From a virus, in IMG/VR virus record IMGVR_UViG_3300037851_000222, positions 30,994 to 94,993 of that record: a stretch of 64,000 nucleotides of DNA; one strand, written 5' to 3'. The translations under genes and the position numbers were made by a program. The notes beneath the pieces are model-generated. The model made no database searches. It saw nothing but the letters and a program-made list of their open reading frames with translations, and was not told the DNA's origin. This document shows positions 9,079 to 21,786 of the stretch, piece after piece. Within the stretch, counting starts at the first letter, position 1; each line of letters opens with the position of its first letter.

Positions 9079-9714
9079 TCAAGTGGGGTCGTCGCAGCAG
9101 GTGGGGAAGGCCCAAAGCTGCTGGGAGGTGTGGTCGGAGACGATGATCGCCATGGTCCCTAGGGACATGCTGAATGCCCCTTTGTTCACGGCGGCCACGT
9201 CCCGAAACCGTCCACTGGACGAGTATAACCGTACTGTCCCTGTCGCCCCTGACAAAATGTTGCCTTGGCTCACGCCGATTGCCGGGCGTTTTGTGTTGAA
9301 CTGCTGATCCCCCACTGCGAAAGATCCGGCCCCCGCCGCGGTCACGACCTCCGAGATGAGGATGACCGACTGGATCAGTTGCCGCACGGTCGGCGCGGTC
9401 ACATCAAACAGCATCCTGGGGAACAGGGTTGCGGCATTTGCCGCATAAAACGCCGCAACCTGCGCATCGAACGAAGTACCCGCGTTGGGGTCGAAGGCCA
9501 GCACGTCCGCTTGGTAGGTGGCGAGGCCGCCCGTGCGGTACTGGAACACCCCGGAGAAGATGATGTCGTTCGCGTTGTCTTGCAGCAGCCGCACGTCGGC
9601 GCTGATCAAGGAGATGCCGCCCAGGAGCGCGAAGAGGTTGTTGACCGCCAGGTTGAAGTTGCTGGCGCTCTGCCCGGGCTTGGTCCTGATCTGCGATGAT
9701 TGAATGAAACCCAT
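9079..9714 (-). CDS. Virion protein, minimal member of the CC-terminated paralogue family
   Basis: Shares two-domain N-terminus with the 9718 and 11763 ORFs; ends PTCCDDPT. Confidence 0.6.
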   Translation of the reverse strand: MGFIQSSQIRTKPGQSASNFNLAVNNLFALLGGISLISADVRLLQDNANDIIFSGVFQYRTGGLATYQADVLAFDPNAGTSFDAQVAAFYAANAATLFPRMLFDVTAPTVRQLIQSVILISEVVTAAGAGSFAVGDQQFNTKRPAIGVSQGNILSGATGTVRLYSSSGRFRDVAAVNKGAFSMSLGTMAIIVSDHTSQQLWAFPTCCDDPT

Positions 9715-9717
9715 GGG

Positions 9718-11766
9718 CTACTCCGGGTCCGGGCAGGTGGTGTCATCAATGGTGCAGTCATTTTCCTGCACCGTGGTTCGGATGGCGAAGCACTCCCTCC
9801 CGGGGTTTGTGTCATAGGCCCAGTCCTCTTCCACCCCTCCTGAGACACACTCCCGCGAGACCTCGACCGGATCGCTCCATTCGCTCGTATCACAGTTCCA
9901 CTCGCTCTCCCAGTGGTAGACGCAGTCATAGCAGCAGTTGGACGGCTCAGCCAGCGTTGGCCCATCCGGCGTGTCGGGGCCGGTGGGGCAGTCGCTGCCG
10001 CCGACCGTGCAGGCGTCCTCTTCCGCTGTCTTCCGGGTGGCTTTGCACTCGTTGCCGGCCCCTGCCATGTAGGCCCACGCCGTGACTTGACTGATGCCAT
10101 CCGCCACACATTCGGTGTTGCCCAGCACTGGGTCGCCCCACACACCACTGATGCAGTCCCACTCGGACTCCCAAGTGTAGACGCAATCCCAGTAGATGCA
10201 GTCGGGGACGCATTCATCTTCGACGGTGCTGAACAGCACCCCTTCACCTGTCGCTTGGGTGATGGCCCCCTGGTCTTCGCACAAGCAGCCGCTGCGCAGG
10301 TAGACCTCGGCCCACTCACCGTCCGGGTCGCAGACCCAGTTCTCGGTCTCGTTGGGGCCAGGTGCGCCTTGGTGCTCGCAACCGTCACTGTCGTTGCTGA
10401 TGCACTCGGCGGCGTCGAACTGCCACACGGACTCGCCGTAATCCTCGACACAGATGTACTTGACGTGCGTGCAGCAGGAGACCGGGCAGCACGCGGCTTC
10501 AATGCTGGGCACACGGATCGGGTTGTTGGCCTGCGCCTGGAAGTCAGGCGCCGGCAGCAGTTGCAGCAGTGTGTTCTGATCGTTCTCCCCACACTCGCAC
10601 AAGCCCTGCTCCTCGTACTCGACATGGTCGATGACGTTGTCGAGGTCCAGGTCTTGCTCGGTCAGGGTGGCGTCGGGAGCACAGTCGGCGTTGTCCACGC
10701 AGGCGATGCTGGTCAGCGTCCACTTGGACGTGCAGGTCTGCGTGGCCTCATCGAAGGTGTCTTCGCAGTCGAACACCGCTTGGAGGCAGCAGTCAGGCGG
10801 GGGCGGCGGGGGGGTGCAGCACCGCGGCGGACAGGTGGGGTCGGGCACGACGGCCGGCAACGGTGCACCGCACCGGCAGGCGTACTTGCGCTCCCAGTGG
10901 GCAGTCAGATCGTTGCAGGTGTAGTAGAACCAGCCATGGAGGCATTGGTCGTTCGGCAGACACCGGATGTTGGTCAGCACCCACACGTCGACATTGTTGA
11001 TGCACTGACAGACGTGGTCGTAGGTCAGGCAGCAGTTGTTCTTGGCAGGGTCGGTGGGGTCGGGCGGGTTGTTGCGGTCCTGGGGGTCCGGCGGGTCGAA
11101 GAACACCGGAGGCCCGCCAGCGTTGCAGGCGGCCCCTACCGGTGAGATCGGCAGCGGCAGGATATCGTCAGCCCCAGCCACACCGCAGCAGTTGAGGCCA
11201 CCATGTCCTGCGGTGGCCGCGTTGACCAGCAGGCCGTTGGTCTGCGCTGGCCAAGTCAGGCCGCCGAGGTTGTTCGCTTCCAGCCGGTCTGGTTGGACGG
11301 CGACGTTGCTCAACTGTGAAAACTGCCCGGCGGTGGCCGTGAGCACCGACTCCTCCGCTTGAGCGGGGAAGTGGACGTTGCCCAGGGTCAGGTATTGCGT
11401 GGCCCGAGGTTGGTAGATGGCCAGGATGCGCGTGGGGTGCGTGAACCGGCTCTTGCTCCGGGTGATGTTCCACGTCTTCAGCAGATCGTAAGGGTTGTTC
11501 AGGAACCAGTTGGCCAAGGCTTGGCTGGCAGTCGCCCCGGCCAAGGGGTTGTCGATGAACTCAATGGCCCCATAGGTGGTGCCGCCGGCCGATTCGTAGG
11601 CGACGACGATCTGGTAGCGGTAGTCGGCCCCCCGCTCCTCAAAGCGGACGCTGATGTCCTGAAGGGTGATCTCCGGGTTGACTTGGAAAAACTGATTCAG
11701 CACGCCCGCGATGACGTTGTTGGTCGACCCGGTCGGGATGACGAAGGACTGGATGCGCTGCGTCAT
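9718..11766 (-). CDS. Cysteine-rich, acidic repeat protein
   Basis: Dozens of Cys, repeated CC units, duplicated DCVY(T/H)WESEW(D/N)C motif. Confidence 0.75.
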   Translation of the reverse strand: MTQRIQSFVIPTGSTNNVIAGVLNQFFQVNPEITLQDISVRFEERGADYRYQIVVAYESAGGTTYGAIEFIDNPLAGATASQALANWFLNNPYDLLKTWNITRSKSRFTHPTRILAIYQPRATQYLTLGNVHFPAQAEESVLTATAGQFSQLSNVAVQPDRLEANNLGGLTWPAQTNGLLVNAATAGHGGLNCCGVAGADDILPLPISPVGAACNAGGPPVFFDPPDPQDRNNPPDPTDPAKNNCCLTYDHVCQCINNVDVWVLTNIRCLPNDQCLHGWFYYTCNDLTAHWERKYACRCGAPLPAVVPDPTCPPRCCTPPPPPPDCCLQAVFDCEDTFDEATQTCTSKWTLTSIACVDNADCAPDATLTEQDLDLDNVIDHVEYEEQGLCECGENDQNTLLQLLPAPDFQAQANNPIRVPSIEAACCPVSCCTHVKYICVEDYGESVWQFDAAECISNDSDGCEHQGAPGPNETENWVCDPDGEWAEVYLRSGCLCEDQGAITQATGEGVLFSTVEDECVPDCIYWDCVYTWESEWDCISGVWGDPVLGNTECVADGISQVTAWAYMAGAGNECKATRKTAEEDACTVGGSDCPTGPDTPDGPTLAEPSNCCYDCVYHWESEWNCDTSEWSDPVEVSRECVSGGVEEDWAYDTNPGRECFAIRTTVQENDCTIDDTTCPDPE

Positions 11767-20478: not shown

Positions 20479-20743
20479 GGTGTTTCCTCATGATCCGGTC
20501 AGTTTCGCCCTGGTGGTACTGAACCAGCCGGTCCAAGTAGCACTCTGGGCACAGCGGCACGGCGCTGAACTCGCCGCCCACCGTGCCCTCTGGCGGCATC
20601 AGCTTGGTCCCGCACCGGCAGACCTCGGGCGCGAAGCGTGGCTTGTCCTTGTCGTCCATCTGGTATGGCGCCCCGCACCCGGCGCAGACGACGTGCCCCT
20701 GCCACTCGACGGCGCCGTGTGTCTGGCAGGCGAGGGCGGTCAC
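20465..20743 (-). CDS. Zinc-finger protein
   Basis: GTG start; CxxH, CxxC, CxC and CxxC motifs. Confidence 0.65.
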   Translation of the reverse strand: MTALACQTHGAVEWQGHVVCAGCGAPYQMDDKDKPRFAPEVCRCGTKLMPPEGTVGGEFSAVPLCPECYLDRLVQYHQGETDRIMRKHHAPS

Positions 20744-21786
20744 TGGAGCGCCCTCAGCGTCCAGACGAGGGCGCTGGGCTGCCCGGCGTAGAGCGTGGTC
20801 TGGAACGTCCACGCGAGCCCGTTCGGGCTGGTGTAGACCTGAAACCCCGTGTCCGTGCCCAGGATCGCCACGAACAGCCCCAGCGTTGGCGACCAAGCGA
20901 TGCCGCCGAAGGCGAGCCGCCCCGTGAGCACCGAGACGGGGAGTTGCAGCACCGCCCCGGAGGTTCCGTAGACCCAGATCGCAGCGTAGTCCTGCCCGGA
21001 CTCGCGGCGCCTGCCAAGTCCGACCGTGGTGCCACCGTTGGTGGCGACCCAGGAGATTTCACTATATGGACTCGGCGGGTTGACCTCGGCGTTCTGGATC
21101 GTCCAGGCAGAGGAAGCATAGGGCGGTGGCTTGAACCACCACCTGGCGACTTGACCAATGGAGGTGAGTTGGCCACCGACCACCACCCCGCTCGGGTTGA
21201 TGCACAGGTCTCGGGGGAAGCTGTTGGGGTTGCCAGCCAGTTGCACCATGAACGCATTTGCATTGATGTAGGGCTGCTGCTCCCATCCGAACAGATACCC
21301 ATTGTTGCTGAAGTCCTGCCCGCACGTCAGCAGGGCGGTGCCCGACCCCAGCGGGGACACCGCGAAGGTGTACCTCGGACTCAACGACACCCCGGGCAGA
21401 CCGCCCAGCACACGAGAGGCACAACCTACCTTGTAGCCGACCCCATTGGCGAACAGGTAGCCGTCCAGCATCACCGGCAGCAGCGCGCCCTCGCGGCCGA
21501 ACCCACCAGGCGCGCCATCACAGCCGATGTTGGCCCATGTGCCCAAGGCCGGCGACACCGCCCGGAGCGAGTTGCCCACTCCACCGCTGATACCAAGAAC
21601 ATCAGGCGTCTCCCCAGGCAGAGTCGAGAGACTGTCTGGCGGGATGGTCCGCGGGTAGGGCTGTGTGTTCCATACGCTCGGGACGGACGACATCACCAGC
21701 ACCTCATCCTCAGTGGTGCCGGCGATCAGATACGGGGCGCCGCAGCACCCCGGGGGCTCGGCCAAGGTCGGCTTGGGCGGTGACAT
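20740..21786 (-). CDS. Beta-propeller-like protein with PTLAEPPGCC leader
   Basis: Paralogue of 19405 (AWSPTLG/AYSPTLG); YTSPNGLAW. Confidence 0.6.
   Translation of the reverse strand: MSPPKPTLAEPPGCCGAPYLIAGTTEDEVLVMSSVPSVWNTQPYPRTIPPDSLSTLPGETPDVLGISGGVGNSLRAVSPALGTWANIGCDGAPGGFGREGALLPVMLDGYLFANGVGYKVGCASRVLGGLPGVSLSPRYTFAVSPLGSGTALLTCGQDFSNNGYLFGWEQQPYINANAFMVQLAGNPNSFPRDLCINPSGVVVGGQLTSIGQVARWWFKPPPYASSAWTIQNAEVNPPSPYSEISWVATNGGTTVGLGRRRESGQDYAAIWVYGTSGAVLQLPVSVLTGRLAFGGIAWSPTLGLFVAILGTDTGFQVYTSPNGLAWTFQTTLYAGQPSALVWTLRALQ

Follow-up and report, generated by a model that had tools for sequence, protein, structure and literature searches.

An uncultured 95-kb virus carries what looks like a previously undescribed plug-in system for swapping receptor-binding heads. 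Five of its genes, all on the minus strand of the window (the whole 64,000-nucleotide stretch that was analysed), encode proteins that we call A to E. On balance, A, B and C are probably paralogous anchors of one virion appendage, and D and E split heads that dock by an adaptor made of a linker and two adjacent cysteines (CC). As three anchor subunits, A, B and C would each contribute a base of ~200 aa that ends in CC, beyond which optional modules would follow on Pro/Thr-rich linkers: A would lack them, B would have five that are Cys-rich and C a BNR-type propeller, each added module starting with its own CC.

Sequence comparison places A, B and C in a previously unannotated CC-ended base family of 82 clusters, and the homologous base that they share, ~200 aa long, has two domains. 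Protein A (9079..9714, 211 aa), assigned by AF2, family search and tree to the A-type clade, consists of the base only and ends FPTCC-DDPT; translation and a cysteine count show that its base-end CC (9094..9099) comprises the protein's only two cysteines. The gene for B occupies 9718-11766, with a B-type base domain in residues 1-194 (11185..11766) that ends GLNCC. The true start of C lies at 13556 (MATGAV), and its C-type base domain (12924..13556) ends LLPSCC, at 12924-12929; both of these domains were assigned by family search, tree and HMM, and that of C also by translation. BLASTP among A, B and C left the common base undetected (best E 0.18), and shuffle z-scores for the A/B/C and D/E comparisons were weak. 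Profile HMMs built without any sequence from the window recovered all three proteins, as that from 47 foreign A-side members found B (E 1.6e-22) and C (E 1.5e-17), and that from 33 foreign B/C-side members found A (E 7e-23). An earlier note on this DNA had proposed a shared base ending in CC, followed by nothing in A, Cys-rich repeats in B or a propeller in C, and these foreign-only profiles and the 82-cluster family bear that proposal out, with the same modular grammar found throughout the family.

An AF2 model of A, built from a 62-sequence alignment (pLDDT 93.1, pTM 0.86), comprises a ferredoxin-like domain (residues 1 to ~125) and an OB-like barrel (~135-205); C modeled without an alignment reached a pLDDT of 35. 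The model of A had no match at E <= 0.001 in the PDB or BFVD (Foldseek), and a PDB sequence profile search also gave none. Neither Pfam nor PHROGs holds a family for A, B, D or E, or for any of the 62 base-only family members, and GenBank phages contained no tblastn match to A or B. Base domain 2 superposes on the OB domains of the phiKZ spike (6orj), P2 gpV (3qr8) and the R2 pyocin spike (4s37) over ~70 residues with Z of 5.3-6.8, a fold-level resemblance only, as ribosomal and NfeD/EutN OB barrels score equally. In the phage central spikes the chain exits the OB domain along the trimer axis, but unlike in those spikes, no beta-helix-like sequence follows the OB domain here.

The hallmark motif of the family, W-x-G-[YF]-P-[ST]-C-C, closes the base; 65 of the 82 members have CC at this position, and among the 46 base-only members that do, 37 stop 0-4 residues later. 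The [YF]-P-[ST]-C-C portion reads FPTCC in A and LPSCC in C, and LNCC in B is the variant of the B clade. The three proteins fall into three orthologous clades (SH-aLRT 97-100). The gene order C-B-A is the same in the window and in the relatives L009 and G001, and co-occurrence of the trio was inferred for six further contigs from their lengths. Two conserved genes (13538..14873, ~270 and 176 aa) stand ahead of the trio in relatives too, as synteny with L009 and G001 indicates. When family members were used to scan metagenome, viral and genome collections, the only finds were L009 (1.5 kb) and L010/G001. The carrier is a lineage of viruses of ~90 kb, in whose genomes a terminase, portal or known capsid gene cannot be recognised, and a six-frame scan for the Walker A motif of a packaging ATPase found none.

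Beyond its base, B continues as a stalk of 49 cysteines, in which the modules have even cysteine counts. Modules M1-M3 (10213..11034) are Cys-rich, each opening with CC after a Pro-rich linker, and their cysteines are invariant in 5-8 homologues. M4 (9988..10212, 8 Cys), the terminal module in the homologues P0005 and P0010, is followed in B by M5 (9718..9936, 8 Cys), its tandem duplicate (46% identity, E 2e-20). Motif search and translation place the internal linker PTLAEPSN and the CC that opens M5 at 9931..9960, just where the earlier note had read PTLAEPSNCC in the Cys-rich protein. B then ends in CPDPE, a truncated linker. A literal split cysteine repeat was considered and ruled out, as M5 carries the full 8-Cys pattern of M4. 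In C, a linker (GNIIPPPPDP) leads into an Asp-box/BNR-type head (11763..12923) with three strict S-x-D-x-G-x-x-W boxes. The match of this head to Pfam BNR profiles (PF02012, PF13088), at E 1.8e-4, falls short of the curated cut-off, and BLAST relates it weakly to BNR proteins (2e-4); its three boxes and these weak matches make its earlier description as an Asp-box propeller probable.

The same peptide recurs at the start of two separately encoded heads. By translation, D (19405-20478, 357 aa) begins with the leader MPPPKPTLAEPPGCC (20434-20478), and E (20740-21786, 348 aa) with MSPPKPTLAEPPGCC (21742-21786), which agrees with the earlier placement of leader peptides at these two starts. A Shine-Dalgarno sequence precedes each gene, GAGGA 6 nt upstream of the ATG of D and GGAAGGA upstream of the start of E. 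With all 94,993 bp of the genome translated in six frames, the pattern [PA]T[LIV][AS]EP..CC has 3 matches, in D, E and B only (~5e-6 expected by chance, as estimated from residue frequencies), PTLAEPxxCC standing at the N-termini of D and E and in the internal linker of B. The peptide would combine an inter-module linker of the stalk with the cysteine pair that opens the following module. The two leaders are identical at 14 of 15 residues, with 6 synonymous codon differences and 1 non-synonymous one. Outside the leader, D and E are unalignable (24% identity, similarity not significant), and BLASTP beyond the leader found nothing significant. These six synonymous changes within a leader whose proteins are otherwise unalignable indicate that selection acts on the leader peptide itself. 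The exact leader was not found in any other protein of a 5.8-billion protein set, in which residues 1-40 of E matched E alone and D matched only itself; no homologues of D or E were found in IMG/VR, where the back-translated PTLAEPxxCC pattern gave 4 matches, all of them by chance and in closed frames.

The heads themselves are less readily classified. D and E contain degenerate DG.SW motifs only, with a weak language-model resemblance to propellers, and neither a strict Asp-box nor a BNR profile match was found in them. Related proteins indicate how they may have arisen. In P0009, a B-like stalk, the linker GPALAAPAGCC and a BNR propeller form one chain, in which stalk module M4 is followed by CATPAIIAGPALAAPAGCCSSPFIMG and then the propeller; the counterpart in E is PPKPTLAEPPGCCGAPYLIAG. 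In P0014, CPTPDETPDGPDFTPDCC is followed by a head of another kind. No D/E homologues are present in the close relative G001, whose own head is fused to B, and the heads of relatives differ at exactly the leader/linker boundary. Split heads occur in one virus only, the one described here. Because P0009 joins stalk, linker-CC and BNR propeller in one polypeptide, D and E look like heads split off from such a fused arrangement, and the Pro-rich-CC peptide can be seen as a junction for head attachment, as had been suggested. Heads that a related virus bears in cis after the same linker would here be made from separate genes, with the 13-residue Pro-rich linker and its CC retained at the N-terminus to serve as the adaptor. 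Relatives of the P0009 head that stand alone proved to be ordinary secreted bacterial BNR proteins in which the leader is absent.

The leader of D or E would dock in trans where the spike has a free end, most likely at the last module of B, M5, which duplicates M4, the module that carries the linker in cis. The tail of B (PDPE, 4 aa) and the MPPPK of D (5 aa) together equal in length the 9 residues (PTGPDTPDG) ahead of PTLAEP in the cis linker. D and E would then be alternative tips, and a disulfide formed by their CC may hold the adaptor in place. A second candidate site is the CC-DDPT tail of A, and it is conceivable, if unlikely, that the heads plug into A and not B, so that A (base-CC-DDPT) with D or E (linker-CC-head) would form a two-gene version of C whose CC pairs are joined by disulfides. 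P0041, which has base-CC-DDEPTF-CC-module in a single chain, resembles the tail of A; A alone in its clade has residues beyond CC, and no virus but this one is known to have split heads; and the CC-linker-CC grammar of such a junction is repeated in B. However, the leader matches the M4-M5 linker of B and no A-type sequence, the linker follows the stalk in the P0009 fusion, and the CC of A would not be free for a head if it were consumed in a knot joining A, B and C.

It is rather improbable that the leader has no trans-docking role and is the start of the head's own fold, its CC fastening the N-terminal strand to the body (by closing a propeller, for example), with D and E attaching to the virion or acting elsewhere through other surfaces. 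The even cysteine counts of the stalk modules and of E are compatible with purely intramolecular disulfides, and the modules in cis all open with CC too. Against this, the cysteine count of D is odd (3), the same peptide serves as a linker in B, and conservation between the two proteins, which cannot otherwise be aligned, is highest in residues 2-13, a Pro-rich stretch ahead of the CC that is unlikely to belong to a globular fold.

Returning to docking on a common anchor, the cysteines that end the three bases appear to change together. In six complete trios, the base-end counts in A, B and C were 2,2,2; 2,2,2; 1,2,1; 1,2,1; 2,0,2; and 0,0,0, with an even total in every trio, and in two trios the second cysteine was lost in A together with the first in C; several of these six trios were paired only through contigs of the same length, and their phylogenetic independence is uncertain. 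This co-variation is consistent with an A/B/C heterotrimer tied by an interchain knot, in which the three base-end CC pairs would meet to form a cystine knot or possibly a metal knot. The earlier idea of a branched spike fits the conserved A/B/C trio, the fusion of a C-type base to a B-type protein in P0005, and the joint changes in the cysteines.

A possible parallel is the C-terminal cystine knot of type III collagen, which Boudko and colleagues reportedly described in 2008 with the sequence Gly-Pro-Cys-Cys-Gly. As in that knot, two adjacent cysteines per chain would stand at the end of a predicted three-chain assembly; a vicinal pair ends the base of each of A, B and C, and by analogy the six cysteines could yield three interchain bonds. 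A ring of Cys1-Cys2' bonds is consistent with the paired loss of Cys2 in A and Cys1 in C. Unlike in collagen, the chains here are different paralogues, with bonding that we infer, and no Gly-X-Y repeats or triple helix were found in the sequences of A, B and C. Cysteine rings and disulfide networks do occur in phage adhesins and tails (PMC3357383, PMC10811340), including the C-terminal cysteine annulus of the P22 tailspike, with transient disulfides between cysteines that are not vicinal (PMC3357383), and the tail disulfide network of phage Milano (PMC10811340). In both, as proposed here, cysteines at or close to the axis of the oligomer contribute to assembly or to the stability of the particle, although neither protein is related to the CC-ended base family. 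A fuller proposal, of a new appendage with a heterotrimeric anchor held by a collagen-III-like ring of vicinal-cysteine disulfides, into which heads plug via the 13-residue Pro-rich peptide and are fixed by thiol-disulfide exchange, is attractive but unlikely to hold in its entirety.

Proteins A to E lack signal peptides and would therefore be made in the reducing cytoplasm, which makes metal sites more plausible than disulfides, and trio totals of four or six cysteines match metal sites as well as disulfides, suiting Zn(Cys)4 or binuclear Cys6 sites. Axial metal sites also occur in phage fibres and spikes (T4 gp37 and gp5, P2 gpV). Nevertheless, it is very unlikely that the base-end pairs bind metal at the axis of the oligomer, or carry some other modification, with no disulfides, and that the CC of D and E does likewise: there are no His or CxxC partners, and the 49-Cys stalk, with its CC and CxC spacing, resembles a disulfide-rich extracellular module. 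A metal site would alter the chemistry of the joint and leave the architecture unchanged.

The further suggestion of the earlier note, a recombination joint for head swapping, taken here as a joint or cassette boundary in the DNA that is used by homologous or invertase-driven exchange, can draw on the leader being the sole DNA repeat common to D and E (50 nt, 82% identity), on the exact boundary at which relatives' heads diverge and on a serine recombinase gene at 53401-54309, but it is highly improbable, given that 6 of the 15 codons differ synonymously, that exact identity extends over no more than ~14 nt, and given a B copy identical to D and E at only 20-21 of 30 nt, a recombinase (the only one found) 32 kb distant, and complete D and E genes in the same orientation, each with its own Shine-Dalgarno sequence and ATG, with no invertase- or shufflon-type inverted repeats flanking the heads in 8500-22500.

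The proposed docking of split heads on paralogous anchors can be compared with known systems. Ackermannviridae and G7C-like phages, such as CBA120 with TSP1-4, have branched tailspike complexes (PMC8825819, PMC7506556). There too, several heads are held on one anchor via conserved N-terminal assembly parts, the heads being exchangeable and the anchors conserved. However, their adaptors are folded, gp10-like domains of 150-330 residues, whereas here a 13-residue Pro-rich peptide and CC would suffice, and the anchor belongs to an unrelated, unannotated alpha/beta + OB family with three paralogues. No Pfam or PHROG match to a gp10-like or TSP N-terminal assembly domain was found in A to E, and the D/E leader has only 15 residues.

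In adenovirus, a short conserved N-terminal peptide of the fibre docks on the penton base, and in PRD1 (P5/P2/P31) one vertex bears two different spikes. These offer a candidate parallel for a short N-terminal docking peptide and for different spikes on one vertex. There is no relation in sequence or fold, and in the AF2 model the base is not a jelly roll.

Receptor-binding modules determine host range, and known phages exchange heads on sizeable adaptor domains, whereas the junction here would be a short peptide and two cysteines. The anchor represents a protein family new to annotation, with ~80 sequence clusters from metagenomes. The occurrence of fused and split forms, and the co-variation of cysteines in three paralogues, provide a testable model of how such a spike may be built and its heads exchanged. 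The family profile also offers a handle on the structural genes of a lineage whose virion proteins otherwise go unrecognised.

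The base common to the anchor proteins A, B and C, about 200 residues ending in CC, is not visible by BLASTP among them. A profile built from their N-terminal regions and scored against 1.84 billion representative proteins matched 82 clusters at E <= 1e-3, 24 of them at E <= 1e-10. HMMs built from foreign sequences only, as a guard against circularity, gave E-values of 1.6e-22 for B and 1.5e-17 for C from the A side, and of 7e-23 for A from the B/C side. These matches (7e-23 to 1.5e-17) confirm the base described in the earlier note and establish it as a new family. No Pfam family was found for any of the 62 base-only members, one of which had a weak PHROG match, and A and B gave no tblastn match in 50,697 GenBank phage records. 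An AlphaFold model of A from the 62-sequence alignment (pLDDT 93.1, pTM 0.86) predicts a ferredoxin/S6-like alpha/beta domain (about residues 1-125) and a small OB-like barrel (about 135-205), with the CC directly after the last strand. Structure searches gave fold-level matches for the barrel only, the best being the phiKZ central spike (Z 6.8), with P2 gpV, the R2 pyocin spike, EutN-type pentamers and ribosomal OB proteins scoring about equally. The N-terminal regions of a 378-aa protein (4493-5629, minus strand; E 3e-7) and a 142-aa protein (genome 25953-26381, minus strand; E 2e-5) match domain 1 of the family, and both proteins match gene 58642-59883 of a close relative, G001.

The finding reaches well past the window, for the CC at the base end is a family hallmark: it occurs in 65 of the 82 members, within the consensus W-x-G-[YF]-P-[ST]-C-C, and most of the others retain one cysteine. 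Among the base-only members, 46 have CC, and 37 of these terminate 0-4 residues past it. About 20 members run on through Pro- or Thr-rich linkers into unrelated heads, including Cys-rich modules, a BNR propeller (P0009) and an FN3-like plus glycine-rich domain (P0079), and in these long members CC again starts each added module.

The base-domain tree resolved an A-type clade (nine rows, all base-only), a B-type clade (eight, each carrying the Cys-rich stalk) and a C-type clade (seven), with SH-aLRT values of 97-100. The order C-B-A, after a homologue of the gene at 13538-14464, also occurs in contig L009 and in G001, an 87,639-bp genome with direct terminal repeats and about 40 genes at 25-65% identity to this virus. 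Cluster look-ups added six cases of A-, B- and C-type proteins paired by contigs of equal size and source, and in P0005 a C-type base is fused to a B-type protein. G001 also carries tandem small Gly/Tyr/Asp-rich ORFs, all ending in TVEGRR (L010 2142-2784 and 3212-4366), possible counterparts of the array of microproteins at 25437-27096.

All five genes lie on the minus strand within one long same-strand run, in the order E (20740-21786), D (19405-20478), two ART-PolyVal (ADP-ribosyltransferase) paralogues (18463-19212 and 16898-18061), four small conserved genes, C (11763-13556), B (9718-11766) and A (9079-9714). A 76-nt repeat, 79% identical, is common to the N-terminal parts of the ART-PolyVal pair. 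Between E and D is a zinc-ribbon-like ORF (about 64 aa, CRCG…CPEC; 20465-20660, minus strand), which overlaps the D start by 14 nt. Directly downstream of A, a lipobox ORF (7961-8200; MRRILLLAAALTLCGC) has membrane proteins on both sides (7555-7989 and 8203-9066), and together they may form a spanin/lysis or membrane set (7555-9066, minus strand). A 672-aa transglutaminase-core protein (43486-45504, plus strand), with a G001 counterpart at 40% identity, could conceivably process virion proteins or cross-link them. The window covers bases 30994-94993 of a 94,993-bp IMG/VR virus record (G+C about 63%). Although CheckV estimates its completeness at 63%, the record probably holds the full genome in circularly permuted form, because its ends join in one 621-aa open frame (window 63464-64000 plus genome 1-1254) and both fragments match one and the same G001 gene. 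Among about 50 proteins of the genome, Pfam and PHROGs recognised neither a terminase nor a portal, no capsid protein of the HK97 or any other known type and no tail protein, and no Walker A motif was found in the genome apart from the D5-like and UvrD-like helicases.

The peptides quoted in the earlier note were all reproduced by translation, and with the complete genome translated in all six frames, PTLAEPxxCC occurs at exactly three sites (by our estimate about 5e-6 expected by chance): at the starts of the putative heads D and E, and inside B at 9931-9960. The D and E leaders are identical at 14 of 15 residues and differ at six synonymous codon positions, and the B copy matches at 8/10 residues but only 20-21/30 nucleotides; conservation thus lies in the peptide and not in the DNA. 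Past residue 15, D and E are 24% identical in global alignment, with no significant similarity by BLAST or hhalign. Each has its own Shine-Dalgarno sequence and ATG. The public gene call starts D at TTG, codon 8; we prefer the ATG, since protein-level conservation with E covers codons 2-7. Searches detected no homologues of D or E, and their propeller likeness consists of degenerate motifs together with a resemblance, itself weak, in a language-model comparison.

Base and modules M1-M4 are common to the eight B-type proteins, and nearly every cysteine in this part is invariant; beyond M4 the proteins diverge. P0005 and P0010 end there (…DCPEP, …DCL), P0009 continues with CATPAIIAGPALAAPAGCCSSPFIMG into a 370-aa BNR propeller, P0014 with CPTPDETPDGPDFTPDCC into a different head, and B with CPTGPDTPDGPTLAEPSNCC into M5, which duplicates M4 (46% identity, E 2e-20), before ending in CPDPE. 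For the head of P0009 the matches are ordinary BNR/sialidase-like proteins (up to 5e-14), and the start of E, PPKPTLAEPPGCCGAPYLIAG, clearly corresponds to the junction in P0009. Because the linker-CC joins stalk to head in cis in P0009, a Rosetta-stone argument from fusion or fission supports D and E as split-off heads belonging on the A/B/C spike. The four-residue tail of B plus the first five residues of D equal in length the nine residues before PTLAEP in the cis linker, and the idea of completion in trans by two tips agrees with the fusions. B-M5 is a candidate socket; the A tail remains an alternative, since a second fusion, P0041 (base-CC-DDEPTF-CC-module), has a junction resembling the CC-DDPT tail of A. 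A literal split cysteine repeat is ruled out, M5 being complete. The recombination joint also proposed in the earlier note is unsupported, the only DNA shared by D and E being 50 nt at 82% identity, with no inverted repeats flanking the heads and the recombinase gene 32 kb away.

A contains no further cysteine, which leaves its CC to work between chains, to bind a metal or to make a rare vicinal bond; D, with three, has at least one cysteine without a partner inside the protein. Stalk modules have even counts (12, 10, 8-10, 6-8 and 8), so a module-opening CC probably belongs to its own module's disulfide set, where it would clamp the N-terminus at which the linker pulls. Base-end cysteines are CC in A, B and C of this virus and of a 71,502-bp contig; the 33,632/10,385-bp contigs and the 21,107-bp contig keep only the first in A, CC in B and only the second in C; a 14,860-bp contig has CC in A and C and none in B; and G001 has none. 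The total per trio is even in all six, and the two trios that lost the second cysteine of A and the first of C belong to separate sub-clades in the tree of A. Across six trios, this pattern is what an interchain ring A1-B2, B1-C2, C1-A2 would predict, a topology reportedly suggested for the knot of collagen III; a metal site would also suit totals of four or six. Since A-E have no signal peptide, disulfides would need to form after release, for which there are phage precedents (PMC3357383, PMC10811340).

Comparative evidence supports the proposal that the Pro-rich-CC peptide serves as a tag by which interchangeable heads attach to a branched spike. The system resembles known modular receptor-binding complexes in its working principle but differs in its new anchor family and in its very small peptide-plus-CC joint, for which docking, a disulfide or a metal would be the candidate chemistry.
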